DNA of 64,000 nucleotides, from contig OZ024744.1 in assembly GCA_964016885.1 (NCBI GenBank), positions 53,816,001 to 53,880,000 on the forward strand, written 5' to 3'. This document shows positions 4,835 through 34,580 of this stretch, one piece after another (the stretch's first letter is position 1; each line of letters starts with the position of its first letter). The position numbers and the translations under genes are program-made. A model generated the notes under the pieces. It was given only the letters and a program-made list of their open reading frames with translations, made no database searches and was not told the DNA's origin. This DNA comes from Eledone cirrhosa. Taxonomy: Eukaryota.

Positions 4835-4835
<1 letters not shown>
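4781..4835 (-). mobile_element. 3' fragment of tRNA/Nin-domain SINE
   Basis: ATTGTTTCTACTTTGGGCTCAAGGCC..CCAGTGCAT..GGTACT matches 53281-53335 and 56774-56826. Confidence 0.7.

Positions 4836-4926
<91 letters not shown>
4836..4926. repeat. (AAT)n, left edge of retrotransposon colony
   Basis: About 30 AAT units. Confidence 0.98.
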
Positions 4927-6430
4927 GAGAGCTTGATCAAGAACAAACTTACAAATATCTAGGTGTTTGTGAAGGAGACGGAATCAAGCACTCGACAATG
5001 AGGGAAAGGATAAGGAAGGAATGTTACCGCAGAGTAAGAGCAATCTTAAGAACGGAATTGAATGCAAGGAATAGGATCGATGCCATAAACACGCTTGCCA
5101 TACCAGTAGTAACCTACAGTTACAATGTCATCAACTGGTCAAGCACAGAGATCCGTAGGCTCGATACAAAAATCCGAAAATTCTTAACCATGCACAGAAT
5201 GCATCACCCTAAGGCAGACATAGATAGAATATATCTCCCTAGGAAAGAAGGAGGACGTGGGTTAATCCAGTTAGACATTGCGTTGAAAACTGCAACAATT
5301 GGATTATCCACATATCTAAGGGAATCACATGATTGGATGATCAAACTCGTTTTGAAACACGAAAGCACCAAAAGATCATATTCCATTACAAAAGATGCAC
5401 AAAGATACAGTAATGGACTACAAATTTCAGAAGTCCCATTTACTGCTGAAATGGAAAACACAGAAAAAGCAAAGCAGGTAAAAGTAACTGCAAAGAAAGA
5501 ACTGCTACAGAAACTGGCTAAGAAATGGCAAGAAAAGCCTCTGTATGGAAAATACCCAGAGCGAGCTAACAATCCTGATGTTGACAAAACTTTAACCCAT
5601 CAGTGGTTGGCATCCTCTGGACTGAAATCGGAGACTGAAGGACTGATTATATCCGCACAAGATCAGTGTCTGCCAACAAAAAATTACCAAGCCAACATAA
5701 TAAAAAATGGGTGCAGCCCATTATGCCGTGTATGTAAAAAACAACCAGAGACCATTGACCATATAATTTCAATGTGCAGTCCTATAGCTCCAACCGAATA
5801 CCTAAACAGGCATGACAGAGCTGCACAATACATACATTGGATAATGTGCAAGCATTTTGACCTGCCCCATCAAAAGAATTGGTGGGAGCATCAACCACCT
5901 CCCATACTTGAAAAAGATCACATCTCAATCTTGTGGAACTTTAGCATCCAAACAGACCGAAAAATAGATGCAAATAGACCTGATATAATATTGAAGGACT
6001 TTCAAAGGAGGGTATGCCTGCTAATTGATATGTCTGTTCCAATAGACAAGAATGTATCTATAAAAACATTTGAAAAATTGAGCAAGTATAAGGACCTGGA
6101 GATAGAAATTGGAAAAATGTGGAAATTGAGAACTAAAACAATACCAGTGGTTGTAGGCGCTCTGGGAATGATACCTAAGAGGTCTAACGACTACTTATCG
6201 CAAATCCCAGGAAACCCGCGTATAGGAGAAATACAAAAGATAGTACTAATGGGAACTGCCCATATACTAAGGAAGATTCTGTCAATATAAGTACATCACA
6301 AGTCTAAACATTAAGGATGCATGTGTGAATATGTGTGTTCTTTCTTGAACATGGCGGACCTTGTTGTCTCTTGAGGTCACTGGTTGTGACTTGGTGATAA
6401 CTCGTATAAACATAAAGCAAGATAAATGCA

Positions 6431-6431
<1 letters not shown>
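4927..6431 (+). mobile_element. R4/Dong-clade RLE non-LTR retrotransposon, family A, 5'-truncated
   Basis: Open frame to stop at 6290: YKYLG, GGRGL, SAQDQ, CCHC CRVC..HIISMC, RHD, NRPDII..IDMSVP..KLSKYKDL (PD-D/ExK nuclease). 3'UTR is followed by (AAT)n. Confidence 0.92.
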
Positions 6432-6468
<37 letters not shown>

Positions 6469-6470
<2 letters not shown>

Positions 6471-6813
6471 TGGATGTGGCCTGCCCGTTCGACACGAGAG
6501 TGCAAGAGAAGGAGAGGGAGAAAATTAACCGATACCAGGACCTAAAGTGGGAGGTAAAAAGGATTTGGAACTGCCATGAAGTCAAAGTGATCCCGATTGT
6601 CATAGGCGCACTGGGGACTATCTCCAAAAGTTTCCAGGGATGGTTAAAGAAAATCGGCCCCTTCACGCTTTTTGGAACGCTTCAAAAGGCATGCTTGCTT
6701 GGAACAGCAAGAACCCTCCGATACGTCCTGAATATCTGAGGCTGTAGGTAGTGGCTTGATATTCAATCCAACGGACTTTCCAGTTAAACAACATCAATGA
6801 CTGAGATTCAAGG
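6469..6813 (+). mobile_element. R4/Dong family B, 345-bp 3' fragment
   Basis: Near-identical to 26860-27204; ends GATTCAAGG + AATAAC(AAC)n(AAT)n. Confidence 0.93.
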
Positions 6814-6828
6814 AATAACAACAACAAC

Positions 6829-6866
<38 letters not shown>

Positions 6867-7117
6867 TTTCATTTATTGGCCACAAGGGCCGACATATAGG
6901 GGACAACACAATAGACAGGGACAGTGGGGGTTTACATAGAGATCGAGTAAGTATAAATAACAAAAAAACAAAATAACAATAAAAATACAACAATGAAAGT
7001 TCCCCAATAAGAGGGATCACCACCCAGGGTTGACTCAAGCACCCCACCAGTCCTGAGCCACCCGACGCTCCTAGGGCACCCGGGAAGGGCACCCCTCTCC
7101 TTCTCGAATTCACCAGC

Positions 7118-10100
7118 CTACAGGCGCATGATCAGAGTAGGCCCACTCACGCGGGCCATTCTCGCCATATTCACCCACCTTTCAGTAAATGTACTGGGGG
7201 ACAGCACTTCTCTCTCCACCCTCACCTTCCTTTCCAAGTGAAACTTGAAGAAGTTGATGAGGGATTGGCCGAAGAGAAAAGTGTCTGTCTTCAGTCCTTT
7301 CAACCTGGTCCACCATGCAACCTCTTTCGCTACTGCCACCAGGCAGAGGAAAATTGCCTGCCCTTCCTGACTAAAAGAAGGCGGCGGGTCAATCTTCACT
7401 ATGGACTCGGACGATAGCCGGATCCGTTCTACACGCGACAATAGCTGTTCGACATAACCCCACAAGTCAGCAATGCACGGACACTGGACGAGTGCGTGCA
7501 GAACGGTTTCGTCGCTCTGCGCGCATCTCGGGCAGGTTCGTCTGACAGCACTTCCGTGCCTGTAGAGTTTATCCCGAACCGGCAGCGCCCCCCGGTAGCA
7601 CTGCCAAGCGAGGGATTTCTGGAAGTTATCCATCGTCCCCGGCTCGAAAGTCCTCCGGAACATACTGGTCAGTTCTACTTCGTTGACGCCTAGAACCTCT
7701 CCTAGTACGTCATCGTACTTGCCCTCCACTAATCCTCTATAGAAATCTTGAGTGGAAGTTCCACTGACCGCATTGCCCACCTTGCAGAGTGCAGTGAGCG
7801 CCTGGCAACATTCCAGATGCCAGTCGCCCAGTCTCGGTCTCTTCTTGACCCAGGACTGCAGCTCAGTCAAAGAGATGAGCTGCGGAAAGGCCCGTCTAAC
7901 AAACGGCGACCACACCTGTTCACCGTTTAGGCAAAATATCTGGAGATGTCGCAGCCTCAGCGCATGTCTGCGCATCATTAGCCACGGCATGCCCAGCCCT
8001 CCACGAAGAGGGTGCTGGCAGCAGATGGACCGCCTCACCAACGGGACCCGTCCCCTCCACAAAAATTTGAAAAGGAGCCGTTCCAAATTGGCGAGGCGTG
8101 GACGGGGGCAAGGCACGACGGTCAGGCGGTAGTAGATGACGGACGCGATGTACGCGTTCGCCACCTCCGCCCGCCCTTTCAGTGATAGCTTTCTCTCAGC
8201 CCATTTCTGGGTGAGGTTGGCTATCCTGCTCGTCACCTCGTCCCAATTCTTATCCACCTGGAGGTCTGGTCCGAACCAAACCCCGAGCAACTTTACCGGT
8301 CCGTCTGTCCAGCGCCCAACGACGCTGTTGGACGGCATGGACTTGCCTCTCCAGGTGCCGAGCTGCAAGCCCACCGACTTTTCCGGGTTAAGTTTTGCTC
8401 CCGTCAACCTTTCATATTCCTCCAAATGGGTGCGGATCACCTCGATTTCCGAGGTGTCCGACACCATCACGGTGATGTCGTCCGCATAAGCGGACGCAGC
8501 CTTTCTGCGTCCCGGTTCGAGCGGGATGCCCTGCAACAACTCCAGCTTCCGCAGTAGAGGCTCAAGAGTCAATACGTACAGAAGTGAGGAGAGAGGGCAC
8601 CCTTGACGGACCGATCGAGAGATCTGAAACGGTTCCGAGAGGTGGCCATTAACTTTGACCACCGAGCAGATGCCGCTGTACATTGCAGCGATCCAGCTTC
8701 TGAAGACGGGGCCGAAGCCAGCCGCCTCGAGGACAGCCTCCAAGTACCGATGGTCGACCCTATCGAATGCTTTCGATTGATCTAAATTGATCAGAGCCCC
8801 ACCGAAGCCAGGTTTGCACCCAACCCTCTCTATGATGTATCGCATGAGGTGGAGGTTGTCGTGTATGGACCTGGTCGGGATTGCGCAAGTTTGCGCCTCC
8901 CCAACCAAATCTTTGACGACAAGCGCCAACCTTTTCGCTAACACCTTGGCCAAAATCTTAAACTCTGTGTTGAGCAGGGTTATGGGCCTGAAATTATCTA
9001 GTGTGTCCCTCTTGTTCTCGTCTTTCCTTATCAGCGTCACTACGCCACGGCTCACAGAACTGGGAATGCTCCCGTTCTGCTGCCAGTTGCAGTAGAGCGC
9101 TTCGAGGAGATCGGAGAACAAGTCTGGCATATTTACGTAAAGCTCGTAGGGCAGACCATCCAAACCGGGTGACTTGCGACTCGAGCAGCCGACAAGGGCG
9201 TCCTGAATTTCGACTGATGTTATCGGCTCTTCGCAGCGCTCAGCGTCGGCCGTCGAGAGGCGTGGCAAGCCGTCGAGGTAGGGACTGAAGTCCGCCGCCG
9301 TCTCCGACTCACCCATCCTCCCGAACAATCGAGCAAAGTGCTGGCGAAAGGCCTCACACATCTGCTTGGAATCGCTCAGTTCGTGTCCATCTCGATCCGT
9401 CAAAGACCGAATTGTGGTTTTATTTCCACGCTGCGTCTCTGCAAAGCGAGCCCATCGGGCAGCTTTGGTTCCCTCGTTCCTCAGAGCACGCGCCTTAGCT
9501 CTGACAATGCAACCTTCGTGTTTCGCATTGAAGAAATGGTCTAGTGCCATTCTCGCCGCTAGCACGTCTGTTGCAATGCCACTACAAATAGCCTCGTCTA
9601 ACTTAGCTATCAGCCCCTCCTCCTTTCTATTTTTCTCTATTGCTACTTCTTTGCTAAATCCTATCGAGGTTGCTCTAATCTCTCTTTTGAGTGCCCCCCA
9701 CCACCTGTTGTTGACAACCCCCCCCTGTCAACTTTTGCTTAACTAAGTTGTTGACCCGGTCCCTGTAAGCTTTACGTGCCGGAAACGACATGTTTAGCTT
9801 CCAGTAGCTAGGTCCTAACCTACGTGTCTTATCTAGGTCGACCATACAGATCACAAGCTTGTGATCTGAATAGGCAACCGTTTTAAAATGTGGACATCCT
9901 ACACTATTTCTATCTCTTTTCCTAATGAAAATCCTATCTATGTACGATCTAGATGACCCTATGCGATTGGTCCAGGTCCATACCGGTGCATTAGGGAAAT
10001 CTAGTCGGTACCTGTCAGACAGTTGAAACTGGCTGATCAGGTACTTGAGGCTTTTGCACCCCCCGCTCCTATCAGATACTCCCACACAATCCCAGCGTGC

Positions 10101-10538
10101 TTCTAAGATGCCATTCCAATCCCCTATTAACAGTAAAGGGCGAGACGTAAGCAGAAAGTTTTCCAGGCGCCTAAAGAAGTCCGGCCGACCGGCCCCAGTA
10201 GGGGCGTAGACGGCCACCAGTCTAAAGGCACCACCTTCGCTATTGCTCACGTCCAGGACCACCAACTTTCCGTCAGGATCCCGGAAGATTGACCTTACCT
10301 CGAGATCCAGACATTTCCTAAACAGCACAGCCACTCCACCTCCCATTCCCGGCCGACTAACAGATGCAAAGATCTGATAATCGTCGAAAATCGGCGCCAG
10401 TGCGCGTGTGTCGGAAATTCTGGTCTCGCTGATGGCAATTACATCCATTCCTAGTGACCTGAGGTCGTTGAGCAAGTGACCTTGCTTCCAGGGCGACCCC
10501 AGGCCACGAACATTTAAACTTCCTACTCTTATGGCCAT
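7118..10538 (-). pseudogene. Tx1-1 ORF2 (APE endonuclease + RT + CCHC), one frameshift
   Basis: GSLNVRG, YAP, GDWN, YSDH; PGLDG, RPITLLN, DQSKAFD, QGCPLS, YADD; CPRC..HALVQC. Single +1 shift in the C8 run at 9718-9725, no stops otherwise. Confidence 0.92.
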
Positions 10539-10567
10539 GCTGGCAGGATGAATGGGAGAGGAAAGAT

Positions 10568-12476
10568 TTACTTACCTTCCGGGGTCTTGTGAAGGTCGGG
10601 TGGTTCGACCTCCATGGTTTGTGGGGTTTCTTTTGGGAACCCCTTTAATAGTCTTGACGTGGGTTTTACGTTCGGGGTTCCCACATCCCGAGGAAAGCTC
10701 TTTCGAATTTCTTTGTATGAAGCGAGCGACATTCGCATCAGAAGCAAATTATCTGGTACGCGAAATGTGCTCGCTTCAAATGTTTCCCCGTCTTTTTCGA
10801 TGTTTGTGCTTCGTGCTACATGGGCCATCAATTCCTTGTTGGCCCTTCTGGCAAGCACGAAGTTTTTAATGTTTTGTTGCTCGGGTTTTATTTGTTCGTG
10901 TGATTGTGGTGGTGATAGCTTTGTTAGTGTTGTTTCTATTGTGTCTGCGTTTGTTTTGGGTGGGGTGTCTGTAGTTTCTGATGTTTGTGTGTCTATTGGT
11001 TCTTGTGTCTGTCTAGCTTGTTTGCGTTTGGGGGATTTTGGTGGTTGTGTTGGTGATGCTGCGGGGAAAATGTTTGTGTGGGTGGTGTGTGTATTTTCTT
11101 TTGTGGGGGTGTTTGTGCTTTGTGGATTTCTTTTTTTTTTGTGTTTTGTTTTTTGTATTTTGGGGGACTTTGGTTTTCCCTCATCTTCACTGCTGGAGGA
11201 TGAGGGGTCTGTGGCTGTGAGCGTGTTTGTGTCTGAGTGAGTGTTTATGTTCTTGTTCGTGTGTGTATTTTGGGGGGGGGGGAATGGGAGAGCTTTCCTC
11301 GTTTCCCCCCTGGGTGTGCAATTTTGGTGGTTCCATTGTTGACGGTGTTGCTGGTGGTCCTTGTCCCGGCGTCGCCAGCAGTGGAATCTTTCGACCCCTT
11401 GCGCTTTTCGGCAGTTGAGGGCAGAAGGCTCGCAAGTGTGTCGTTTCCCCACAAAGGAAACAATGCGGCGTTTTGCCCTCAGTCATTATATGCAACACCC
11501 TCCCGTTTTGGAGGCGGATGTGGTCCGGGATTGCTTTTACGTTTTCGGGTCTGATTTGGAGCAGTATCTCCAGATCAACCCCGGACCAGTCGTCCCTGGC
11601 AGTTCTCGTTGCCTCTACCGGGACTGTATCCGTTCCTTCCACGATTACGCAACCCAGGAGCCACCACATATCAAGTCCTGGTGGAATCCTGGGAATGCGC
11701 ACACGTGCTATTCGTTTTCCCATGTGGGAGGGGTACATTATGACCTTGCTGGTTTTGCAAGGGGTCATTGAATGCTTCACAGCGAGGGCTTCAGACTTGA
11801 ACAGCACCGAAACGGTGCCGTATTGCCTGCCCCTCTCTATGAAGTCTGTGTCCTCTCTGATGTATTTCAGTGCGGCTTCTATATCAGCTTGCGCGATTAT
11901 CGCTGCCCTCTTTGTCTCTACTGAGATGCATCTGAAATGCACCGTTCTTTTTTCCACTGCCTCAATGGCTTCTGCCGGGACAGTTAAGTTTGCCCAGGTC
12001 TGCTCTTGATTTATGATTTTCCAGGCCTGGGCCAACTTTTCCTCTCTGTTGGTTAAGTCGATGCTGTAGCATGGTCTCCTTTTAGCCGCTGCCACAGCAG
12101 CGAAGGTGTTCTTGTTGGTGTTGTCACTGTTGTTGTTATTGTTGGTGTTGCTGCTGCTATTGTTGTTGTTGTTCTCCCCTGTGTCGTGGTTACCCTCTGT
12201 GCTGTTGGCCTTGTTGGTGCTGTTGCTGTCGCTACTATTACTCTCTGTGCTGTTCGTTTTGTTGGTGCTCTCGCTATTACCACCTTCTGCGCTGTTCGGC
12301 TTGTTGGTGTTGGTGTTGTCGCTGTTACCACCTTCCGCGCCGCTCGGCCCGTTGGTGCTGGCACTGTCGCTGCTCACATTCGTGCTGGTGGCGCTCCTCG
12401 CCTCACCTCTCCTCTCAACGCTCAAGTCGCCGTTGCACGACAGCAGACCCGCCTCTAGGGGGCGTGGCTCCGCCAT
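10568..12476 (-). pseudogene. Tx1-1 ORF1 (gag-like zinc knuckle), one frameshift
   Basis: CFLCGETTHLRAFC; Ser/Asn-rich N-terminus; frame switch in the G12 run at 11271-11282; homologous to ORF1 at 19373-21466. Confidence 0.88.
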
Positions 12477-12713
12477 GTTTTTTTGAGAAAAAAATTATTA
12501 TTTTTTCCAAAATAAAGTTCAAATATTTGGGCCAAAAGGCCCAAATATTATGAGTTATTCCTTCACAGGATACAAATGAATGTCTTATAATGCTTCAGCG
12601 GTACAAAAAATAAACAATTCTCTACAATTAATCCTCAAAAAATTGCTTACTCACGGAGCTTCAAAAAACGTACATCCACTTTCGTCAATAATAATAATAA
12701 TAATAATAATAAT

Positions 12714-14671
12714 CTCCTCCACATAAACAACTTGTTACCGGACGAACAGAAAGGATGCCGAAAGAAATCCCGTGGTACAAAGGACCAGTTACTTATTGAT
12801 AAGATGGTAATGAGGAATTGCAGAAGGAGACACACTGGTCTTGCCATAGGATGGATAGACAAAAAAAAAGGCATTCGACATGGTACCTCATTCTTGGATA
12901 ACCGAATGCCTAGAGATCTTCAGGGTGGCAGATAACATCAGACAGTTGTTGGGCAAAAGTATGAAGTATGGGAAACAGAGTTAACATCTGGTGGAGAATC
13001 CTTGGGAAGCGTGAAGATCAAGAGAGGTATCTTCCAGGGAGATAGTTTGTCCCGTCTGTTGTTTCTCCTTGCCCTGATCCCCCTGACCATTGTACTGCGA
13101 AAAGTGAGAGCAGCATACAAGTTGTGAAAGGGAGAGCTTACCGTCAATCACCTCCTCTTCATGGACGATCTTAAGCTCTTCGGGAAGAGTGAGAAGGATT
13201 TGGATGTGCTTGTTGACACTGTCCGTATTATCAGCAATGATATATGTATGCAATTTGGTATTAGTAAGTGTGGAGTGCTAGTGAGGAAGAGGGCTAAATT
13301 GAGCAGAAGCAACGGAATCCAGGTACCAACAGGTGAGATGATAAAGGAAATTGACACTGAAGAATGATACAAATATTTAGGTGTTCTGGAGGCTGATGAC
13401 ATCAAGAACAAAAAAATGAAGGAATTGATAAGATCTGAATATATTCGGAGAGTAAGGAGCGTATTAAAGTCACATCTGAACAGTAGGAATGCCATAAGTG
13501 CAGTAAATTCCCGAGCTGTGTCTATTATTAGGTACAGTGCGGGAATTCTGAGATGGAATGTTGCTGAACAAAAAGAAATGGATAGGAAGACTAGGAAGCT
13601 ATTGACTATCTACAACATGTTCCACAAAAGGAGTAATGTCGATAGACTCTACTTAAGGAGATCTGAAGGTGGAAGAGGTCTTATCAGAAATAGAGGACTG
13701 TGTTGAGATGGAGAAAAACAGCCTACACAAATACGTGACTGATAGTAGGGAGCCAATGCTCAGAATTGTACTGAAGGAGAGGACAATGGACCAGGGGATG
13801 TCCAAGGAGGAAATAACAACAAGGAGAAAGAGCAACCTTCATGAAAAATCCCTTCATAGTGCCTTCTTTGAGAAAACAGAATTTAGAGATCCACAGACTT
13901 GGAACTGGTTGAAAAGAGGAGACCTTAAAAATGCTACAGAAGGAATGCTAATGGCTGCGCAAGAGCAGGCCCTCAAAACGAAGTGTCAGAAACACCATAT
14001 TTACAAGGAGGAGGCTAGCCCACTGTGTAGGATCTATGGAGAGAGAGGGGAGACTGTGGCTCACATTGTATCCGAATGTAAACACCTAGCCCAGATGGGC
14101 TATAAGGGCTGGAGACATGATGTGATGGACAGGGTGATCCACTGGCACCTATGCAAAGTAAGCAAATTACCATATTCTGAGTAGTGGTATGAGCATAAGC
14201 CAGAGTCGGTGATGGAAAACGATTAGGTGAAGGTGCTGTGGGATTTAGGATACAGACGGACAAGAACCTGGAACAAAATAGACCTGACCTAGTGGTTTGG
14301 GACAAGGAAAAAAGATCGTCCCTGATTGTGGATGTGGCCTGCTCATTCGACACGAAAGTGCAAGAGAAGGAGAGGGAGAAAATTAACCGATACCAGGACA
14401 TGAAGTGGGAGGTAAAAAGGATTTGGAACTGCCCTGAGGTCAAAGTGGTCCCGATTGTCATAGGCGCACTAGGTACTATCTCAAAGAGTTTCCAAGGATG
14501 GTTAAAGAAAATTGGTCCCGCCCCGCTTTTTGGAACACTTCAAAGGGCATGCTTGCTGGGAACAGCAAGAACCATCCGATACGTCCTGAATATCTGAGGT
14601 TGGAGGTAGTGGCTTGATATTAATTTCAACAAACTCTCCATTTAACTAACATAAATGACTGAGACTCAAAG
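12714..14671 (+). mobile_element. R4/Dong family B diverged copy, 5'-truncated, decayed
   Basis: EQKGCR, GIFQGD, MDDLKL, AQEQAL, NRPDLVV with several stops and frameshifts; AAT/AAC flanks. Confidence 0.92.
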
Positions 14672-14703
14672 AACAACAATAATAATAATAATAATAATAA
14701 TAA

Positions 14704-15576
14704 GCAAAAAATGATGAACAATTGCAAGAGCTATTATCCACTGTGAAGCAGTTCAGTGATGACATTAAAATGGAGTTTGGACTAGATAAATGCGCCAAAG
14801 CAACGTCCACCAGAGAAAAGTTGCTGAGAAGTTCAGACATTAATCTTGATCGGGGGAATGTGATAACAGAACTTGATCAAGAGGAAACTTACAAATATCT
14901 AGGTGTTTGTGAAGGAGACGGAATGAAGCACTCAACAATGAGGGAAAGGATAAGGAAGCAATGTTACCGCAAGGTAAGAGCAATATTAAGAACGGAATTG
15001 AATGCAAGGAATAGAATCGATGCCATAAACACGCTTGCCATACCAGTAGTAACCTACAGTTACATTGTCATCAACTGGTCAAGCACAGAGATCCGTAGCC
15101 TCGATACAAAAATTAGAAAATTCTTAACCATGCACAGAATGCATCACCATAAGGCAGATAAAGATAGAATATATCTGCCTTGGAAAGAAGGAGGACGTGG
15201 ATTAATCCAGTTAGATATTGCGTTGAAAACTGCAACAATTGGATTATCTACATATCTAAGGGAATCACATGATTGGATGATCAAACTCGTTTTGAAACAC
15301 GAAAGCATCAAAAGACCATATTCCATTACAAAAGATGCACAAAGATACAGTAATGGACTACAAATTTCAGAAGTCCTATTTACTGCTGAAATGGAAAACA
15401 GAAAAAGCAAAGCAGGTAAAAGTAACTGCAAAGAAAGAACTGCTACAGAAACTGGCTAAGAAATGGCAAGAAAAGCCTCTGTATGGAAAATACTCTGAAA
15501 GAGCTAATAATTCTGATGAGGTCACTGGTTGTAACTTGGTGATAACTCGTATGAACATAAAGCAAGATAAATGCAA
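14704..15576 (+). mobile_element. R4/Dong family A copy, 5'-truncated with internal deletion
   Basis: Matches 4927-5580, then jumps at ~15518 to the 3'UTR equivalent of 6374-6431. Confidence 0.92.
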
Positions 15577-15577
15577 C

Positions 15578-15578
<1 letters not shown>

Positions 15579-15655
<77 letters not shown>
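15579..15655. repeat. (AAT)n spacer
   Basis: About 25 units between tail-to-tail elements. Confidence 0.98.
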
Positions 15656-15657
<2 letters not shown>

Positions 15658-15917
15658 TTTCTTTATTAACCACAAGGGTTTACATAAAGTAGACATTAAG
15701 GACAGTGCAGGACAATGCAGGACGGTACAAATGGGCATTTCTGCGTGTAAAAAAACAAAAACAGAGGATGTAACAAAAATAACAATGAAAATAACAATGA
15801 AAAATTCCCCAATAGGGGGGAGACTTCGGAGGGACATTTGTGGAGAAAGCCCAGTAAAAGGCCACAATGACCCTGACCACCAAGGCAAGTGCCCTCTCCC
15901 AGTTTTCCACCTTTAGT

Positions 15918-19337: not shown

Positions 19338-19372
19338 GTTTAAAATAGAGTGGAAAAGATGGGAAAGACCAC

Positions 19373-22027: not shown

Positions 22028-22054
22028 AATAACAACAATAATAATAATAATAAT

Positions 22055-22637
22055 GATTTCTTTATTAACCACAAGGGTTTACATAAAGTAGACATTAAGC
22101 ACAGTGCAGGACAATGCAGGACGGTACAAATGGGCATTTCTGCGTGTAAAAAACAAAAACAGAGGATGTAACAAAAAATAACAATGAAAAATTCCCCAAT
22201 AGGAGGGAGACTTCGGAGGGACATTTGTGGAGAAAGCCCAGTAAAAAGCCACAATGACCCTGACCACCAAGGCAAGTGCCCTCTCCCAGTTTTCCACCTT
22301 TAATTTACAGATATATACTCAGAGTAGGCCCATTCACTCGGGCCATTCTTGCTTCTCTCACCCATCTTTCAACAAAATGCTGGGAAGAGAGCACTTCCCT
22401 CTCTACTCTGATTTTCCTTTTCAAATGAAATTTGAAAAAGTCAATCAGAGCATCACCGAAGAGGTAAGTGCTCGTCTTCAGCCCTTTCAAACGTGTCCAC
22501 CATACTATCTCTTTCGCCATGGCCACCAGACAGATAAAAACTGCCTGCCCTTCCCGGCTAAAGGAGGAGGGCGGGGCAATCCTCACGATGGACTCAGATG
22601 ATAGCCGGATCCGTCCTAAACACGACAGCAGGTGTTC

Positions 22638-22639
<2 letters not shown>
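22055..22639 (-). mobile_element. Tx1-2 3' fragment (5'-truncated independent insertion)
   Basis: Near-identical to 15656-16252; AAT repeats on both sides. Confidence 0.94.
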
Positions 22640-22688
<49 letters not shown>

Positions 22689-25600
22689 GGGAAGAAGGCG
22701 CACGAGGTGACGGAGGTCATGAAATCGCTCCCGTAAGTTTTGAATTTTTAACATATTTAAATCATTTGTGAAATAACAACTCTTAGTACAAATGCTACGT
22801 AAAGCACCCGGCTTGAGCCCCAAAAATTCGGACCCAAAATATATTGTTATAAGGCTCAAATATCCAAATATTCAACTTTGTATTGTACACTGTATATCCA
22901 AAAAAGAAAATGGCTATAAATGGAAGAAGAACCCCCCCCCCTCCTCTCCTCTGGCTACACTATATAGGACAGCCAAATTCACCAACACCAGAAACTAGAT
23001 ACACCACCCACCCCATCATCTGTGTACACTAAACACAACAGCCAGATAACGGCATTTTCACCCTCACCGCCACCGCTCACTACGGCCATCATTACCACCA
23101 CTATCCCATCACCGCCGCCACCACCCCTTGACTCCTTCACTACTGCCACCGCTACAGCACCATCACTACAGTAATACGGTCACATCACCGCCACCACTGC
23201 CTCGGTATCGACATCACCACCACCACTGTCTCAGTATCGCTACCGCCGCCAGTCTCCCACTCCTCCCTGCTGGCTGCTACTTCCACATTATAGAATTCCT
23301 ACTACTAACAAAGAGGAAGACATCAAAATATATAGATAGACTCAAAAGAAAAAAGAAAAAACAAACAACAAAACCAAAGCAGCACAGCAACAACAGCAAA
23401 AACGAGAAAAACAAACAGAGAAAAACAAAAACAAAAAAAGAAACCCCAAAAACGTAAAGAAAATAAGAATGAAGAGAGAAGCAGGCGGACGGACAGAGAA
23501 GAGGGGGGAAAAAGTAAAACTTAAAAAACAAAAACTAAGTCAGACATTCGAACACTACATTACAATGAAACTTATGCTTATTCATTTTTGGGGCCCTTTC
23601 TGCCTGTGTGTTTGTTTGTTTATGTGTGTTCGTATACAGCGTGGTGATAATGCCACACAAGGGCCAAGTGGGATGGCGGATCCACAGATGGATATGTAAC
23701 CATACATTCGCCAATCCTCGATAAGAGTGTTTAAATATCGAACATAAACAGTTCGAATAATGGTGAAATGGAGACTAGAATGTCATGTGACAGACTCTCA
23801 CCCAACAGGTGCCCCCTGGCTCAGCAGCAGGAACCTGACTGTCAACCAAATACTGCTGATGTTGGAGGAAGAAGAAGAAGGAAAGGGGCCAGAACCAACT
23901 GGACGAAAGAATTGAATAGAAATGTTATGCAATGCTAACTGAAAAGTAACCCCAAGGAGAGGGGCTACAGAAGACGGATGCATAACATCTGGAACGAGAT
24001 TGGTTTATTTAAATTAGATGAACAAAAATTGGAGTGGATAAGCGAGCTGGAGCTGGAGGAACTGAGCAGAGAGAATGGCTTGGAGATGGCGGGTGTAGTA
24101 TGCCAGACAAGCGAGCCAGTGGGAAATGAAGGTGAAGAGGTCCTGAGAACGGAGGAACCACCCGAAGCAGACAATGATCTGAATACTGAGATAAATAATA
24201 CCTGGAACAGAGATACGGCCACTGAGAAGATGAATGCTGACGGGCTAGGACAAGATTCGGTTGACATCCTAAATTTAGTGGTAGATGAATTGAACAATGA
24301 TAGTGGGAGACCTATGAACCTAAGATTTGTAGACAGGAAAAAGTTAAAAGAAACAACAGCTAAGGTAAACAAAGTCATCCCATACCTTGAGGCGAGGAGC
24401 CTTCACCAGTGCAACAATATCCTCAAAGCAACAGCAAATACGGTGAGGAAACTACTTGGTATAAAAGCGAGAGGAAACAACAGACAAGAAAGAGCAGAGC
24501 CGTGGTGGAAGAAGCGACTGAGTGGGCAAATCGGGGAAATGAGGAATGACATAGGAAAGCTTGAGTCACTACTGAATGGGACACTAAAAAACATAGGCAC
24601 TAAAAATAGACTGGAAATAAAATACAAAACTAGGAGTAAAAAGCTAAATATTATCATAGAGGAATTGAAGCAACGCATTGTAGCAAAGAGTGCAAAAATC
24701 AGGCGATACGAGAACAGAGTCAGTCAGTATAAACAGAACCGCATGTTCGACAACAACCAGAAGATGCTGTTTGGACAGCTTGAGGGGAAAGAAAGAGGCA
24801 ACGACTTGATCTCTGGGGCGGAACAAACTAAAACATTCTGGAGAGGAATATGGGAGCAGGATGTTAGACACAATGCCCAGGCAGGGTGGATTGAGACAGT
24901 ACAGAGGGAGATCGGTGAGCAGGCACAACAACAAACTGATTTGAGTATCACAGTTGAAACTCTTAAGGGGCAAGCCAAAAAACTAACCAACTGGAAATCA
25001 CCAGGCCCAGATGGTGTGCAGGGGTATTGGATTAAACATTTAACATCCCTCCACCCGAAGCTGACGGCCATGTTCAATGACTGCTTGGTGTCGGGTGAGG
25101 TGCCAGAGTGGTTGACAAAAGGTACCACAGTTCTGATAATGAAAGACCGAATCAAGGGTAATGATGTTACCAACTATAGACCTATCACATGTCTGTCCGT
25201 AATGTGGAAACTGTTGACGAGCATTGTGTCTGAGGAAATCTACCATCACCTCCACACAAACAACTTGTTACCGGACGAACAGAAAGGATGCCGAAAGAAG
25301 TCACGTGGTACAAAGGACCAGTTACTTATTGATAAGATGGTAATGGGGAATTGCAGGAGGAGACACACTGATCTTGCCATGGGATGGATAAACTACAGAA
25401 AGGCATTTGACATGGTGCCTCATTCCTGGATCACCAAAAGCCTGGAGATCTTCAGGGTGGCAGATAACATCAGACAGTTGCTAGGCAGGAGTATGGGGTC
25501 CTGGGAGACAGAGTTGACATCAACTGGAGTATCCTTGGGAAGCGTGAAGATCAAGAGAGGTATCTTCCAGGGAGATAGCCTGTCCCCTCTGTTGTTTGTC

Positions 25601-27204
25601 CTTGCCCTGATGCCCTTGACCATTATGCTGCGAAAAGTGAGAGCAGGATACAAGTTGGGAAGGGGAGAGCTTACCATCAATCACCTCCTCTTCATGGACG
25701 ATCTTAAGCTCTTCGGGAAAAGTGAGAAGGAGTTGGATGTGCTTGTTGACACTGTCCGTATTTTCAGCAGTGATATATGTATGCAGTTTGGTATTGGTAA
25801 ATGTGGAGTCATTGTGATGAAGAGGGGTAGGTTGAGCAGAAGTAACGGGATCCAGATACCAACAGGTGAGATGATAAAGGAAATTGACTCTGAGGAAGGA
25901 TACAAGTATTTGGGCGTTCTGGAGGCTGATGGCATAAAGAACAAAAAAATGAAGGAATTGTTAACAACTGAATACATTCGGAGAGTAAGGAGCGTACTGA
26001 AGTCACATCTGAACAGCAGAAATGCCATAAGCGCAGTAAATTCCCGAGCTGTGTCTATTATTAGGTACAGTGCGGGAATTCTGAGATGGAATGTTGCTGA
26101 ACAAAAAGAAATGGATAGGAAGACTAGGAAGCTATTGACTATCTACAACATGTTCCACAAGAGGAGTGATGTCGATAGACTCTACCTAAGGAGATCTGAG
26201 GGTGGAAGAGGTCTTATCAGCATAGAGGACTGTGTTCAGATGGAGAAAAACAACCTATACAAATACGTGACCTATAGTAAGGAGCCAATGCTCAGAACTG
26301 TACTGAAGGAGGGGACAGTAGGCCAGGGGATGTCCAAGGAGGAAATAACATCAAGGAGGAAAAGCAGCCTTAAGGGAAAATCCCTTCATAGTACCTTCTT
26401 TGAGAAAACTGAATTTAGAGATCCACAGACATGGAACTGGTTGAGAAGAGGAGACCTCAAAAAGGCTACAGAAGGAATGCTAATGGCTGCGCAGGAGCAG
26501 GCCCTCAAAACGAAGTGGTTGAAGCACCATATCTACAAGGAGAAGGCCAGCCCACTGTGCAGGATCTGTGGAGAGAGAGAGGAGACTGTGGCTCACATTG
26601 TGTCCGAGTGTAAACACCTAGCCCAGACCCACTATAAGGGCTGGAGACACGATGTGATGGGCAGGGTGATCCACTGGCACCTGTGCAAAGTAAACAATCT
26701 ACCACATTCTGAGAAATGGTATGAGCATAGGCCAGAGGCGGTGATGGAGAACAATCAGGTGAAGGTGCTGTGGGATTTTAGGATACAGACGGACAAAAAA
26801 CTGGAACACAATAGACCTGACCTGGTGGTTGTGGACAAAGAAAAAAGATCGTGCCTGATTGTGGATGTGGCCTGCCCGTTCGACACGAGAGTGCAAGAGA
26901 AGGAGAGGGAGAAAATTAACCGATACCAGGACCTAAAGTGGGAGGTGAAAAGGATTTGGAACTGCCATGAAGTCAAAGTGATCCCGATTGTCATAGGCGC
27001 ACTGGGGACTATCTCCAAAAGTTTCCAGGGATGGTTAAAGAAAATCGGCCCCTTCACGCTTTTTGGAACGCTTCAAAAGGCATGCTTGCTTGGAACAGCA
27101 AGAACCCCCCGATACGTCCTGAATATCTGAGGCTGCAGGTAGTGGCTTGATATTCAATCCAACGGACTTTCCAGTTAACCAACATCAATGACTGAGATTC
27201 AAGG
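22689..27204 (+). mobile_element. Full-length R4/Dong family B element with ~1-kb 5' leader
   Basis: Starts at the AAT boundary with the same 5' terminus as 32779; single long ORF; 3'UTR + AAC/AAT tail. Confidence 0.93.
23735..27130 (+). pseudogene. Family B RT-RLE polyprotein (1050 aa open from 23978; N-terminus has ATG>ATA and one stop)
   Basis: In-frame upstream WTKELNRNVMQC*LKSNPKERGYRRRMH (TAA 23936-8); PGPDG, YRPITCL, KAFD, GIFQGDSLS, FMDD, CRIC..HIVSEC, RHD, NRPD..VDVACP..KINRY. The sister copy has ATG at 34262. Confidence 0.9.
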
Positions 27205-27233
27205 AATAACAACAATAATAATAATAATAATAA

Positions 27234-29609
27234 TAAAACATTCTGGAGAGGAATATGGGAGCAGGATGTTAGACATAATGTCCAGGCAGGGTGGATTGAG
27301 ACAGTACAGAGGGAGATCGGTGAGCAGGCACACCAACAAACTGATTTGAGTATCACAGTTGAAACTCTTAAGGGGCAGGCCAAAAAACTAACCAACTGGA
27401 AATCACCAGGCCCAGATGGTGTGCAGGGGCATTGGATTAAAAATTTAACATCCCTCCACCCGAAGCTGACGGCCATGTTCAATGACTGCTTGGTGTCGGG
27501 TGAGGTGCCAGAGTGGTTGACAAAAGGTACCACAGTTCTGATAATGAAAGACCGAATCAAGGGTAATGATGCTACCAACTATAGACCTATCACATGTCTG
27601 TCCGTAATGTGGAAACTGTTGACGAGCATTGTGTCTGAGGAAATCTACCATCACCTCCACACAAACAACTTGTTACCGGACGAACAGAAAGGATGCCGAA
27701 AGAAGTCACGTGGTACAAAGGACCAGTTACTTATTGATAAGATGGTAATGGGGAATTGCAGGAGGAGACACACTGATCTTGCCATGGGATGGATAGACTA
27801 CAGAAAGGCATTTGACATGGTGCCTCATTCTTGGATCACCAAAAGCCTGGAGATCTTCAGGGTGGCAGATAACATCAGACAGTTGCTGGGCAGGAGTATG
27901 GGGTACTGGGAGACAGAGTTGACATCAACTGGAGTATCCTTGGGAAGCGTGAAGATCAAGAGAGGTATCTTCCAGGGAGATAGCCTGTCCCCTCTTTTGT
28001 TTGTCCTTGCCCTGATGCCCTTGACCATTATGCTGCGAAAAGTGAGAGCAAGATACAAGTTGGGAAAGGGAGAGCTTACCATCAATCACCTCCTCTTCAT
28101 GGACGATCTTAAGCTCTTCGGGAAAAGTGAGAAGGAGTTGGATGTGCTTGTTGACACTGTCCGTATTTTCAGCAGTGATATATGTATGCAGTTTGGTATT
28201 AGTAAGTGTGGAGTCATTGTGATGAGGAGGGGTAGGTTGAGCAGAAGTAACGGGATCCAGATACCAACAGGTGAGATGATAAAGGAAATTGACTCTGAGG
28301 AAGGATAAAAGTATTTGGGCGTTCTGGAGGCTGATGGCATAAAGAACAAAAAAATGAAGGAATTGTTAAGAACTGAATACATTCGGAGAGTAAGGAGCGT
28401 ATTGAAGTCACATCTGAACAGCAGAAATGCCATAAGCGCAGTAAATTCCCGAGCTGTGTCTATTATTAGGTACAGTGCGGGAATTCTGAGATGGAATGTT
28501 GCTGAACAAAAAGAAATGGATAGGAAGACTAGGAAGCAATTGACTATCTACAACATGTTCCACAAGAGGAGTGATGTCGATAGACTCTACCTAAGGAGAT
28601 CTGAGGGTGGAAGAGGTCTTATCAGCATAGAGGACTGTGTTCAGATGGAGAAAAACATCCTATACAAATACGTGACCTATAGTAAGGAGCCAATGCTCAG
28701 AACTGTACTGAAGGAGGGGACAGTAGGCCAGGGGATGTCCAAGGAGGAAATAACATCAAGGAGGAAGAGCAGCCTTAATGGAAAATCCCTTCATAGTACC
28801 TTCGTTGAAAAAACTGAATTTAGAGATCCACAGACATGGAACAGGTTGAGAAGAGGAGACCTCAAAAAGGCTACAGAAGGAATGTTAATGGCTGCGCAGG
28901 AGCAGGCCCTCAAAACGAAGTGGTTGAAGCACCATATTTACAAGGAGGAGGCTAGCCCACTGTGCAGGATCTGTGGAGAGAGAGAGGAGACTGTGGCTCA
29001 CATCGTGTCCGAGTGTAAACACATAGCCCAGAACCACTATAAGGGCTGGAGACACGATGTGATGGGCAGGGTGATCCACTGGCAACTGTGCAAAGTAAAC
29101 AATTTACCACATTCTGAGAAATGGTATGAGCATAGGCCAGAGGCGGTGATGGAGAACAATCAGGTGAAGGTGCTGTGGGATTTTAGGATACAGACGGACA
29201 AAAAACTGGAACACAATAGACCTGACCTGGTGGTTGTGGACAAAGAAAAAAGATCGTGTCTGATTGTGGATATGGCCTGCCCTTTCGACACGAGAGTGCA
29301 AGAGAAGGAGAGGGAGAAAATTAACCGATACTAGGACCTAAAATGGGAGGTGAAAAGGATTTGGAACTGCCATGAAGTCAAAGTGATCCCGATTGTCATA
29401 GGCGCACTGGGGACTATCTCCAAAAGTTTCCAGGGATGGTTAAAGAAAATCGGCCCCTTCACGCTTTTTGGAACGCTTCAAAAGGCATGCTTGCTGGGAA
29501 CAGCAAGAACCCTCCGATACGTCCTGAATATCTGAGGCTGCAGGTAGTGGCTTGATATTCATTCCAACGGACTTTCCAGTTAACCAACATCAATGACTGA
29601 GATTCAAGG
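27234..29609 (+). mobile_element. R4/Dong family B, 5'-truncated, two premature stops
   Basis: Near-identical to 24829-27204; stops at 28306-28308 and 29332-29334. Confidence 0.94.
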
Positions 29610-29635
29610 AATAATAACAATAATAATAATAATAA

Positions 29636-32600
29636 GGAGGAGGAACCACCCGAAGCAGACAATGATCTGAATACTGAGATAAATAATACCTGGAACAGAG
29701 ATACGGCCACTGAGGAGATGAATGCTGATGGGCTAGGACAAGATTTGGTTGACATCCTAAATTTAGTGGTAGATGAATTGAACAATGATAGGGGGAGACC
29801 TATGAACCTAAGATTTGTAGACAGGAAAAAGTTAAAAGAAACAACAGCTAAGGTAAACAAAGTCATTCCATACCTTGAGGCGAGGAGCCTTCACCAGTGC
29901 AACAATATCCTCAAAGCAACAGCAAATACGGTGAGGAAACTACTTGGTATAAAAGCGAGAGGAAACAACAGACAAGAAAGAGCAGAGCCTTGGTGGAAGA
30001 AACGACTGAGTGGTCAAATCAGGGAAATGAGAAATGACATTGGAAAGCTTTAGTCCCTACTGAATGGGACACTAAAAAACATAGGCACTAAAAATAGACT
30101 GGAAATAAAGTGCAAAACTAGGAGGAAAAAGCTAAATATTATCATAGAGGAACTGAAGCAACGCATTGTAGCAAAGAGTGCAAAAATCAGGCGATACGAG
30201 AACAGAGTCAGTCAGTATAAACAGAACCGCATGTTCGACAACAACCAGAAGATGCTGTTTGGATAGCTTGAGGGGAAAGAAAGAGGCAACGACTGAGGCG
30301 GAACAAACTAAAACATTCTGGAGAGGAATATGGGAGCAGGATGTTAGACATAAAGACCAGGCAGTGTGGATTGGGACAGTACAGAAGGAGGTCGGTGAAC
30401 AGGCACACCAACAAACTGATTTGAGTATCACAGTTGAAACTCTTAAGGGGGAAGGCCAAAAAACTAACCAACTGGAAATCACCAGGCCCAGATGGTGTGC
30501 AGGGGTATTGGATTAAAAATATAACATCCCTCCACCCGAAACTGACAACCATGTTCAATGACTGCTTGAAGTCAGGTGAGGTAACAGAGTGGTTGACAAA
30601 AGGTACCACAGTTCTGATAATGAAAGACCGAATCAAGGGTAATGATGTTACCAACTATAGACCTATCACATGTCTGTCCGTAATGTGGAAACTGTTGACG
30701 AGCATTGTGTCTGAGGAAATCTACCATCACCTCCACACAAACAACTTGTTACCGGACGAACAGAAAGGATGCCGAAAGAAATCCCGTGGTACAAAGGACC
30801 AGTTACTTATTGATAAGATGGTAATGAGGAATTGCAGGAGGAGACACACTGGTCTTGCCATAGGATGGATAGACAAAAAAAAAGGCATTTGACATGGTGC
30901 CTCATTCTTGGATCACCAAAAGCCTGGAGATCTTCAGGGTGGCGGATAACATCAGACAGTTGTTGGGCAAAAGTATGAGGTCCTGGGAAACAGAGTTGAC
31001 ATCAGCTGGAGAATCCTTGGGAAGCGTGAAGAACAAGAGAGGTATCTTCCGGGGAGATAGCCTGTCCCCTCTGCTGTTTGTCTTTGCCCTGATGCTCCTG
31101 ACCAGTGTACTGCGAAAGGTGAGAGCAGGATACAAGTTGGGAAAGGGAGGGCTTACCATCAATCCCCTCCTCTTCATGGACGATCTTAAGCTCTTCGGGA
31201 AGAGTGAGAAGGAGTTGGATGTGCTTGTTGACACTGTTCTTATTTTCAGCAGTGATATATGTATGCAGTTTGGTATTAGTAAGTGTGGAGTCATTGTGAT
31301 GAGGAGGGGTAGGTTGAGCAGAAATAACGGAATCCAGATACCAACAGGTGAGATGATAAAGGAAATTGACTCTGAGGAAGGATACAAGTATTTGGGCGTT
31401 CTGGAGGCTGATGGCATAAAGAACAAAAAAATGAAGGAATTGTTAAGAACTGAATACATTCGGAGAGTAAGGAGCGTATTGAAGTCACATCTGAACAGCA
31501 GAAATGCCATAAGCGCAGTAAATTCCCGAGCTGTGTCTATTATTAGGTACAGTGCGGGAATTCTGAGATGGAATGTTGCTGAACAAAAAGAAATGGATAG
31601 GAAGACTAGGAAGCAATTGACTATCTACAACATGTTCCACAAGAGGAGTGATGTCGATAGACTCTACTTAAGGAGATCTGAGGGTGGAAGAGGTATTATC
31701 AGCATAGAGGAGCGTGTTCAGATGGAGAAAAACAACCTACACAAATACGTGACTGATAGTAAGGAGCCAATGCTCAGAACTGTACTGAAGGAGGGGATAA
31801 TAGGCCAGGGGATGTCCAAGGAGGAAATAACATCAAGGAGAAAGAGCAGCCTTCAGGAAAAATCCCTTCATAGTACCTTCTTTGAGAAAACTGAATTTAG
31901 AGATCCACAGACATGGAACTGGTTGAGAAGAGGAGACCTTAAAAAGGCTACAGAAGGAATGTTAATGGCTGCGCAGGAGCAGGCCCTCAAAACGAAGTGG
32001 TTGAAACACGATATTTACAAGGAGGAGGCTAGCCCACTGTGCAGGTTCTGTGGAGAGAGAGGGAAGACTGTGGCTCACATTGTATCCGAGTGTAAACCAC
32101 TAGCCCAGACCCACTATAAGGGCTGGAGACATGATGTGATGGGCTGGGTGATCCACTGGCACCTGTGCAAAGTAAACAATTTACCACATTCTGAGAAATG
32201 GTATGAGCATAAGCCAGAGGCGGTGATAGAGAACGATCAGGTGAAGGTGCTGTGGGATTTTAGTATTCAGACGGACAAGAAACTGGAATACAATAGACCT
32301 GACCTGGTGGTTGTGAACAAAGAAAAAAGATCGTGTCTGATTGTGGATGTGGCCTGCCCATTCGACACGATAGTGCAAGAGAAGGAGAGGGAGAAAATTA
32401 ACCGATACCAGGACTTAAAGTGGGAGGTAAAAAGGATTTAGAACTGCCATGAAGTCAAAGTGATCCCGATTGTCATAGGCGCACTGGGGACTATCTCAAA
32501 AAGTTTCCAGGGATGGTTAAAGAAAATCGGCCCCTTCACGCTTTTTGGAACGCTTCATAAGGCATGCTTGCTGGGAACAGCAAGAACCCTCCGATACGTC

Positions 32601-32686
32601 CTGAATATCTGAGGCTGCAGGTAGTGGCTTGATATTCATTCCAACGGACTTTCCAGTTAACTAACATCAATGACTGAGACTCAAGG
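29636..32686 (+). mobile_element. R4/Dong family B, 5'-truncated, frameshifted, mosaic
   Basis: Homologous to 24150-27204 with stops and frameshifts; AAT/AAC flanks. Confidence 0.94.
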
Positions 32687-32704
32687 AATAACAACAACAA
32701 CAAC

Positions 32705-32778
<74 letters not shown>
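32687..32778. repeat. (AAC)n(AAT)n spacer
   Basis: Direct reading. Confidence 0.97.
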
Positions 32779-32779
<1 letters not shown>

Positions 32780-34580
32780 GGAAGAAGACGCACATGGTGG
32801 ATAGAAGGTCGTGAAATCGCTCCCGTAAGTTTTGATTTTTAACATATTTAAATCAATTGTGAAATAACAATTCTTAGTACAAATGATACATAAAGCATCC
32901 GTTTAAGTCTCAGAAAAATTCGGATCCATAATATATTGTTATATCGCTCAAATATTCAATTTTGTATTATACATTTTATATTCAAAAAAGAAAATGGTTA
33001 TATATGGAAGAAAACCCCCTCTGTCTACACTATATAGAACAGCCAAACAACAGCAATTTCACCAACACCAGAAACTAGATACACCACCTACGCCATCACC
33101 CCTCTGTGTACACTAAATACAACAGCCAATTTCGCCACCACCACCACCAATCTCAGCATAATAATAATAATTACTATTATTATTGTCTCAAGTTTTAACA
33201 AAATGTTTAATTCCAATATTAAGGAAAATATGTCAACGCGACTAACCCCATAGATTCACCGATCAAACAAAAATACAGTCTATTCAACAAAAGTCAGTAA
33301 CGACAACGTCATCACTACAGTCACCGCCGCGGCCGCCCATCCATCATTACTACCAATATCCCATCACCGCCGCCGCCACTCCTTCATTGCTACCACCGCT
33401 ATCCCCCCTTACCTTCTGTTAACTTACGAAAGGGGAAGGTGGCGGTATCACTAGACAATATTAATAAACAAGATTAATATTTAATTTTGGATCAGGAATG
33501 TTAGAGTCGAAAAGGAGAAAAATGACAAAATGACTAAATAACTAAATATAATTTCACCACCAACACCACCACCACTACCACGATGAAAACTCTGGTCAAG
33601 TCGACTCAACCGCTATTTCTACTCCAAATTCAACACCATCACTACAGTACTACGATCACATCACCACCACCACTACCTCATTATCGCTACCGCCGCTATT
33701 CTTTCCCACCACCTCCTGCTAGTTGCTGCTAGCACAGCACCGCCACCACCACCACCACCACCACCACTGCCTCATTATCACTACCGCCGCTAGTTGCTGC
33801 TAGCACAGCACCGCCACCACCACCACCACCACTGCCTCATTATCACTACCGCCGCTATTCTCTCCCGCTACCCCCTACTACATCGTAGTGCCCCCACTAA
33901 ATGAGGAAGGCATCAAAATATATAAATAGACTGAATTGATCACCCGGTCAAAATAAAAAAAACAAAAATAAAAATCAAAGCAGCACAGCAACAACGAAAA
34001 ACGTAAAGAAAAGAAAAACGAAGAGGAAAACAAACAGACGGACAGAGAAGGGAAGGGAAAAACTAAGTCAGACATTCAAATATTACATTACAATGAAACT
34101 TATGCTTATTCAATTTTCGGCGGATTTTTTTGCCTGTTTGTTTGTTTGTTTATTTATGTTCGTCTACAGCGTGATAATGCTACACAAAAATCACCGGGCG
34201 TGACGAAATCACCGGTGGTTATGTAACCATACATTTGCCAATCCTCGATAAGAGTGTTTAAATGTCGAAACCAAACAGTTCAAATAACGGTGAAATGGAG
34301 ACTAGAATGTCATGTGACAGACTCTCACCCAACAGGTGCTCCCTGGCTCAGCAGCAGGGACCTTGCTGTCAACCAAATACTGCTGGTGTCGGACGAAGAA
34401 GAAGAAGGAAAGGGACCAGAACCAACTGAACGAAAGAATTGAATAGAACTGTTATGCAATGTTACCCAAGGAGAAAGGCTATAGGAAACGATGCATAACA
34501 TCTGGAACGAGATTGGTCTATTTAAATTAGATGAACAAAAATTGGCCGGGCAGGCTCGGGTAATAAGAACTAAAGGATCG
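32779..34580 (+). mobile_element. R4/Dong family B 5' portion (leader + ORF start), 3' part lost
   Basis: Homologous to 22689-24030, with expanded CAC-rich middle; ends after DEQKLAGQARVIRTKG. Confidence 0.88.

Follow-up and report, generated by a model that had tools for sequence, protein, structure and literature searches.

Two unrelated retrotransposon clades share an (AAT)n target in opposite orientations across the Eledone cirrhosa genome

We examined a 64,000-nucleotide stretch of the Eledone cirrhosa genome (assembly GCA_964016885.1, contig OZ024744.1, forward-strand positions 53,816,001 to 53,880,000; hereafter the window), in which long interspersed nuclear elements (LINEs) of two unrelated clades are arrayed along AAT repeat in opposite orientations. 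A triplet-run scan, self-alignment and a listing of open reading frames (ORFs) define 12 LINE segments in series at positions 4926–34576, and each copy was assigned by mapping against natural full-length copies elsewhere in the genome. This mapping bears out an earlier first-pass annotation, made from the letters alone, that had counted nine copies from two families with a restriction-like endonuclease (RLE) on the + strand and three copies from two families with an apurinic endonuclease (APE) on the − strand. The RLE copies comprise two of family A and seven of family B, the latter divided into four B and three of a subfamily Bv (~90–95% identity), and the APE copies are one T1, one T2 and one 5′-truncated T2. 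Eleven perfect runs of (AAT)5–25 lie between the 12 segments and a twelfth, of 30 units, borders the first. None of the 12 copies interrupts the body of another, their truncation points all differ and their identity to genome reference copies ranges from 90 to 99.7%, indicating that they are separate insertions of different ages.

Read from the left with all repeat runs given on the + strand, the array begins with (AAT)30 at 4836–4925 and copy 1 (4926–6430, +), a 5′-truncated A element 99.4% identical to positions 3394–4901 of a full-length A (L218) and retaining the ORF end with a CCHC finger and PD..D..K motif. Following (AAT)13 (6431–6469), copy 2 (6470–6828, +) is a 345-bp B 3′ end with an AAC/AAT tail (99.1% to B), and (AAT)12 (6829–6864) forms a tail-to-tail RLE/Tx1 junction with copy 3 (6865–12686, −), a full-length Tx1-like T1 with Exo_endo_phos, RVT_1 and zf-RVT domains whose ORF1 and ORF2 are each split over two frames. 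The head-to-head junction (AAT)9 (12687–12713) leads to copy 4 (12714–14677, +), a 5′-truncated Bv at 93%, then (AAT)8 (14678–14701) and copy 5 (14702–15578, +), a 5′-truncated A with an internal deletion of ~790 nt and pieces at 94.7% and 96.6%. Across the tail-to-tail junction (AAT)25 (15579–15655) lies copy 6 (15656–21680, −), a full-length Tx1-like T2 with both frames open: ORF1 of 701 open codons including a zinc-knuckle-like motif, and ORF2 of 1138 aa in the order APE, reverse transcriptase (RT), zinc finger. A second head-to-head junction, (AAT)8 (21681–21704), precedes copy 7 (21705–22036, +), a B 3′ end at 99.7%; (AAT)6 (22037–22054) then precedes copy 8 (22055–22638, −), a 5′-truncated T2 96.3% identical to copy 6. 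Beyond a third head-to-head junction, (AAT)16 (22639–22688), copy 9 (22689–27213, +) is a full-length B, 98.2% identical to L205, with a 1.08-kb 5′ untranslated region (UTR), an ORF broken near the N-terminus and 1063 open codons spanning RT, CCHC and RLE, the RT and RLE matching R2 structures. The remaining + strand copies are copy 10 (27235–29618), a 5′-truncated B at 98.0% reached through (AAT)7 (27214–27234); copy 11 (29634–32704), a 5′-truncated B/Bv at 95.6% to Bv, after (AAT)5 (29619–29633); and copy 12 (32777–34576), after (AAT)24 (32705–32776).

The two ends of the array require amendments to the first-pass annotation, which had described 12 insertions in series with AAT at the junctions and none nested. 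The 12 segments, the 11 runs and the lack of nesting stand, but copy 12 is a 3′-deleted stub: it consists of a Bv 5′ UTR and the beginning of the ORF (90–92% to Bv positions up to 1527), has no RT, and no AAT follows its right end. As only the first ~1.8 kb of the element is present, with the 3′ two thirds and the right AAT flank missing, the original right flank of the array has been lost. A thirteenth insert had also been missed at the left, where the 53-bp 3′ end of a ~187-bp tRNA-like short interspersed nuclear element (SINE) lies in Tx1 polarity at 4783–4835 (−), 86% identical to the SINE copy L207, with degenerate ATT on its 3′ side and (ATT)30 on its 5′ side. The order of copies is that of the assembly, and the short-read contigs listed span none of the junctions of this locus. 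AAT at the head-to-head junctions is neither neighbour's tail and is thus target-derived.

Families A and B each have a single ORF, 1216 and 1130 aa long where a genome copy is intact and 36% identical in protein, in which RT is followed by a CCHC finger and then an RHD/PD..D..K nuclease motif, and both RT and RLE can be aligned with structures of R2. Within their first 350 aa, A and B have no C2H2- or CCHC-like motif, a contrast to R2 and NeSL, where N-terminal zinc fingers are present. Utopia elements likewise have N-terminal zinc fingers (PMC4640811; statements on this and all other cited papers refer to the portions of their text available). Insertion of A and B at TAA repeats, with the repeat in element sense, is a Dong/R4 trait, and protein, cluster and Atlas searches with A and B returned no named Dong or R4 protein. 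As side observations, the 330-nt 5′ ends of A and B are 75% identical despite the divergence of their proteins (window 22689–23040 and 32779–33125; L218:1787–2130) and share a GTAAGT donor-like motif at ~+45, for which a promoter, a ribozyme or a module swap is conceivable. AAG repeats lie between the AAT run and the RLE 5′ end at several loci (L057, L081, L161, L215, L041), perhaps through slippage on the element's own GAAGAAG start.

The APE families each have an ORF1 with a zinc-knuckle-like C-x2-C-x4-H-x4-C, seen by eye in both ORF1s, and an ORF2 with APE, RT and zf-RVT (Pfam PF03372, PF00078 and PF13966) that is 73–76% identical between T1 and T2. Their nearest solved structure is L1 (L1 ORF2p E 1e-52 versus 1e-22 for R2) and their APE residues align to the L1 endonuclease, and protein searches returned distant named relatives only, such as a Ciona pol-like protein at 27%, with no named Tx1 among them. 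Domain order and target, rather than a tree, fit a placement of A and B as Dong/R4-like and of T1 and T2 as Tx1-like. Both frames of T2 are open in the window (copy 6), and those of T1 (copy 3) and of the full-length RLE element (copy 9) are broken. The Tx1 tail runs in the order CTTGT-loop hairpin, AATAAA, GAAATC and then repeat, with hairpin arms that covary between GGCC/GGCC in T1 and AACC/GGTT in T2 around a conserved CTTGT loop that is present in the SINE too. Related Tx1 families at 70–77% identity have ATCT-type repeats after the 3′ end, suggesting a shift of the Tx1 side to a target in prior use by Dong in insects and a snail. Older Tx1 sisters with the same tail layout followed by ATCT/TATC-type repeats were also seen at L293:3700–4250 and 5200–5600 and at L241:2850–3350.

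The arrangement in the window reflects a genome-wide habit. A tabulation of flank sequence and orientation had been set beforehand as the refuting test, and across the 3.0 Gb searched, where 5′ ends were counted by exact pattern, flanks were neither random nor randomly oriented. T2 5′ ends have (ATT)4 directly upstream in 1,627 of 1,687 cases (96%), compared with a chance of 1.7e-4 at a random position (266/1.6 million). RLE 5′ ends number 1,141 in the genome, and (AAT)4 lies within 25 nt upstream in 549/599 of those on the minus strand, the strand to which this count was limited so that each match was counted once, the forward count having overlapping starts; (ATT)4 occurs at RLE 5′ ends at only 3 loci among the 1,141. 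The same picture holds for the best hits, as the 5′ flanks of T1 end in ATTATT in 30/30, the window copy included, and those of T2 do so in all 30, in one register shared with T1, while B 5′ junctions among the 30 best hits often hold a few extra bases. At the T2 3′ end, 1/30 copies (L022) is followed by TTC repeats. An unselected sample of 80 evenly spaced 10-kb stretches (0.8 Mb) agrees in polarity, with ends beside runs of at least five units in ATT sense for 12/12 Tx1 and in AAT sense for 20/21 RLE elements. A 3′ flank could be the element's own tail but a 5′ flank could not, so this flank pattern reflects targeting, and a published criterion sets Tx1 target preference at over 20% of flanks (PMC4494074), a level exceeded by T2 5′ ends (96%) and by T1-type 3′ ends (17/30). 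The (AAT)n target shared by the two clades with opposite polarity, as first proposed for the window, is therefore real and not a chance feature of one locus: insertion sites are dispersed over the chromosomes sampled and the 30-kb array is one of many in this genome. This rule is independent of the copy order within the locus.

Insertions of both clades are bordered by repeat on both sides. Among 35 full-length copies picked among the best hits, partly for imperfect flanks, 32 have at least four repeat units on each side (Tx1 17/20, B 15/15). Imperfect flanks further reveal duplicated marker bases in some Tx1 copies, of 18 bp (L182) and 15 bp (L183) in full-length elements and of 19 bp (L019) and, with one mismatch each, 12 bp (L026) and 16 bp (L318) in truncated ones; L054, likewise truncated, has a duplication of at least 14 bp, and its 3′ side exceeds its 5′ side by 14 ATT units. 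The Tx1 target-site duplication is 12–19 bp in these six informative copies. Of the 46 runs of at least five units in the 0.8-Mb sample, 23 border one of these LINEs, and coverage at ≥80% identity is 2.1% for RLE elements, 3.2% for Tx1 and 1.7% for the SINE. A rough model with ~0.8 insertions per founding site gives an expectation of 4e-6 sites with at least 12 insertions at a fixed rate and of ~4 if every new run is a target. Each insertion leaves AAT on either side, which likely lets arrays grow and likely explains why thousands of copies in the genome follow the rule seen in the window, and the duplications and the rough model support the first-pass suggestion that the array feeds itself.

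Taken together, these data make it probable that two Dong/R4-like RLE families and two Tx1-like APE families use (AAT)n runs across the genome as insertion sites, the two clades facing opposite ways and likely priming from opposite strands by target-primed reverse transcription (TPRT), with the repeat left on both sides likely allowing arrays to grow. Priming from opposite strands is what we infer from the TPRT mechanism. The RLE protein would nick the ATT strand and prime on RNA ending in AAC/AAU repeats; the AAC/AAT variants inherited at RLE 3′ ends point to a run that is partly RNA-templated. The APE protein would nick the AAT strand after T, using RNA that ends in the CUUGU hairpin, AAUAAA and AUU repeats, and would make its second-strand cut after ATT at a variable distance of 6–19 bp. 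Its core site is predicted to be short (ATTAT), with pairing between RNA tail and primer helping to confine LINE copies to longer runs. Splitting and partly duplicating a run would raise the number of targets at a locus with each insertion, a rich-get-richer mode of growth, and unequal crossing-over may add units in some other arrays, not visibly in the window.

Several observations weigh against this mechanism or limit it. Polarity is near-strict rather than strict as first claimed: orientation is opposite by clade, but the 3 RLE 5′ ends with (ATT)4 depart from it, and among the first 30 of 3,159 T1-type 3′ ends only 17 have at least four perfect ATT units, leaving 13 with fewer, and 26 start with ATT and 4 otherwise, so that the T1 lineage is looser in its choice or its flanks have decayed. 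Four full-length Tx1 copies (L185, L191, L195 and L197) leave a nearby marker unduplicated, which limits their duplication to at most 6–12 bp. A duplication search over RLE copies found none visible, pure runs being uninformative for it, and two RLE copies (L041, L215) have AAG runs 5′ and pure AAT 3′. Enrichment of another LINE beyond the run is modest, at 96/171 searched ends versus 33/92 sides in the sample, with sides not independent, and the growth model is crude, resting on 46 runs and 20 LINE 3′ ends, though its two readings differ by six orders of magnitude. The best fold of the SINE tail lacks the CTTGT hairpin. Finally, truncation points recur in neighbours within other arrays (L333/L334, L209), where duplication also builds arrays.

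The SINE offers a view of what sets the target. It is 187 bp long with A- and B-box-like motifs and ends in GGC-CTTGT-GCC plus GAAACA, and SINE ends in targeted loci, inside arrays, have Tx1 polarity in 24/25. A random sample of 57 copies has 3′ flanks that begin ATTAT in 53–56/57 per position, with only 2/57 copies in a pure repeat run; duplications reach 21 bp, and our script found none in 21/57. The T1/T2 protein likely carries this abundant SINE. If so, the nuclease site would be short, and RNA–primer pairing or another cis factor would restrict the LINEs. RNA-tail pairing may thus contribute to targeting, as the SINE at ATTAT and the extra 3′ repeat units in some copies suggest. Two dispersed SINE copies lie outside any AAT run in the window (53281–53464 and 56774–56888, −), with duplications that start with ATTAT, and 45 bp from the SINE 3′ end recur inside the 5′ UTR of some RLE copies including family A (L218 ~2590–2640, L038, L093, L118, L220).

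These observations bear on the first-pass proposal that two nucleases converged on one triplet. The shared target stands, but because the SINE needs only ATTAT, with 2/57 copies in a pure run, targeting by nucleases alone is unproven, and the extra 3′ units point the same way. Under such nuclease-only convergence both endonucleases would read several AAT triplets, the RNA tails would play no part and the SINE would be carried by another LINE. We regard this as possible but doubtful. It would account for the exactness of register at the two Tx1 junctions, seen in 96% of T2 copies, and endonuclease swaps do shift specificity between TRAS1 and SART1 (PMC7265360), but the SINE shares the Tx1 tail loop, junction and duplication length while needing a shorter site, some T1 copies (L318, L026) have ATT-like sites outside repeats, L054 has gained 3′ units, and annealing of tail to target raises accuracy in SART1 and R1 (PMC7265360). 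A wider proposal is similarly tentative and may well not hold in full: four LINEs and one SINE would form a self-multiplying niche on one trinucleotide repeat that takes up ~5% of the genome, or 7% once the SINE is counted, a Tx1 lineage would have left ATCT-type repeats for the opposite strand of an ancient Dong target, insertions of each clade would provide targets for the other, and the Tx1 protein would take long runs for its own RNA and any ATTAT for the SINE, with stringency set by the cargo RNA and not the nuclease.

Growth of the array mainly through tandem duplication or unequal crossing-over between copies is very unlikely for the window. Such events do occur elsewhere, as an A–T2 unit recurs with its truncation point unchanged at C1:55.43–55.45 Mb, neighbouring T1 copies on C10 differ at 1 in 1,500 nt versus a median of 10, and L209 repeats a B stub, but the 12 window copies all have different truncation points and diverge by 0.3–10%. 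These distinct breakpoints refute duplication for the window, and it holds for some other arrays. Arrays with full-length Tx1 elements were seen at L332–L335 (C1:55.43–55.46 Mb), at L336–L338 (C10:44.68–44.71 Mb) and at L209, identical truncation points in repeated units indicating tandem duplication.

Scarcely credible is the view that every repeat run is the tail of an element and that stacking reflects open AT-rich spots and survival in harmless places with no targeting. The inherited AAC/AAT variants at RLE 3′ ends would suit it, as would some 3′ runs longer than the target held, but 5′ flanks are repeat in 92–96%, truncated copies included, the head-to-head junctions at 12687, 21681 and 22639 hold AAT belonging to no tail, and polarity is fixed relative to the run; the 5′ flank counts largely refute this view. 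An assembly artefact, in which unrelated repeat copies were joined at AAT runs, is just as improbable: although none of the listed short-read contigs spans the tested stretch, the runs of 15–90 bp are far below read length, thousands of junctions share one register, copies of 6 kb have marker bases duplicated on their two sides, AATAATAAT separates a T2 part from a B part in one short-read contig that may come from the source sample, and mis-joins could reorder this locus but not create a genome-wide rule.

Each ingredient of this system is known, and the combination, together with an ATT target for a Tx1-like element, appears new. TAA-specific Dong elements of the R4 clade include Bombyx Dong, DongAg and the snail DongBg (PMC3812793, PMC3774820), and a (TAA)7–Dong junction primer places the TAA repeat upstream in element sense (PMC3774820). 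A and B resemble them in their single ORF with RT, CCHC and RLE and in the upstream TAA repeat, and differ in sharing their target with an APE clade and in comprising two families 36% identical in protein with a 75%-identical 330-nt 5′ end. Dong and R4 also have a self-cleaving hepatitis delta virus (HDV)-like ribozyme at the 5′ end (PMC3774820), and none was detected here: Rfam at E≤1 on window 4000–36000 gave AT-repeat miRNA noise only and no ribozyme, and a home-made HDV-like descriptor, not validated on a known ribozyme, gave no match. Octopus vulgaris has abundant young Dong-R4 families (PMC13282606, Table 1), and L1-Tx1 is likewise listed there as a young family, with targets not mentioned in the available part of that paper.

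Among microsatellite-targeting Tx1 elements, Kibi inserts in (TC)n and Koshi in (TTC)n (PMC3812793, PMC4494074) and crocodilian Tx1 in (TTCC)n/(TTTC)n (PMC4494074). T1 and T2 are like these as two-ORF APE elements of the L1/Tx1 group in a microsatellite, but unlike Kibi and Koshi they target (ATT)n, which is the Dong target read on its other strand, and have sister families before (ATCT)-like repeats. TRAS and SART in Bombyx telomeres (PMC7265360) are similarly two kinds of LINE on one simple repeat in opposite orientations and mixed arrays, but both are R1-clade APE elements confined to telomeres, whereas the enzymes here are unrelated, one being RLE, and the AAT sites dispersed. Keno (Tx1, APE) and Utopia (RLE) also use one U2 snRNA site in parallel (PMC4640811), but their 3′ flank, hence orientation, is the same, and their gene target is disrupted rather than multiplied. 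The SINE recalls the crocodilian pair SINEU and Tx1-Mar (PMC4494074) in that a Tx1 family with a preferred target likely carries it, but it is much less selective than the LINE (ATTAT versus runs). Further related literature includes PMC8967140, PMC9115989 and PMC8869645. A literature search covering few subscription papers turned up neither a Tx1 element specific for ATT nor a microsatellite whose two strands are used by an RLE and an APE element, respectively, and the supplements of PMC4494074, outside that search, may list more targets. Because every ingredient has precedent, known biology is not overturned. The system provides a natural, high-copy test of LINE target choice with two unrelated nucleases on one 3-bp repeat, in which nuclease and RNA-tail contributions can be told apart with the help of Tx1 sister families that use other repeats and of a SINE, likely a passenger, whose site is looser. 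It is also a possible cause of LINE hotspots and AAT abundance in octopus-type genomes, the families making up ~5% of the sampled 0.8 Mb and bordering half of its longer AAT runs.

Elsewhere in the window, broken Helitron-like Rep/helicase frames lie at 38098–41498 (+; Helitron_like_N, E 1.7e-51), and an old Tx1-like relic without an AAT flank lies at 48037–49457 (+), 65–75% identical to T1. A related non-coding repeat with 142-bp subunits beside (TA)n occurs in both orientations at 3735–4455, 45744–46251 and 46803–47546 and is possibly a miniature inverted-repeat transposable element, and a 48-bp minisatellite of ~44 copies with open frames on both strands occupies 61435–63601.

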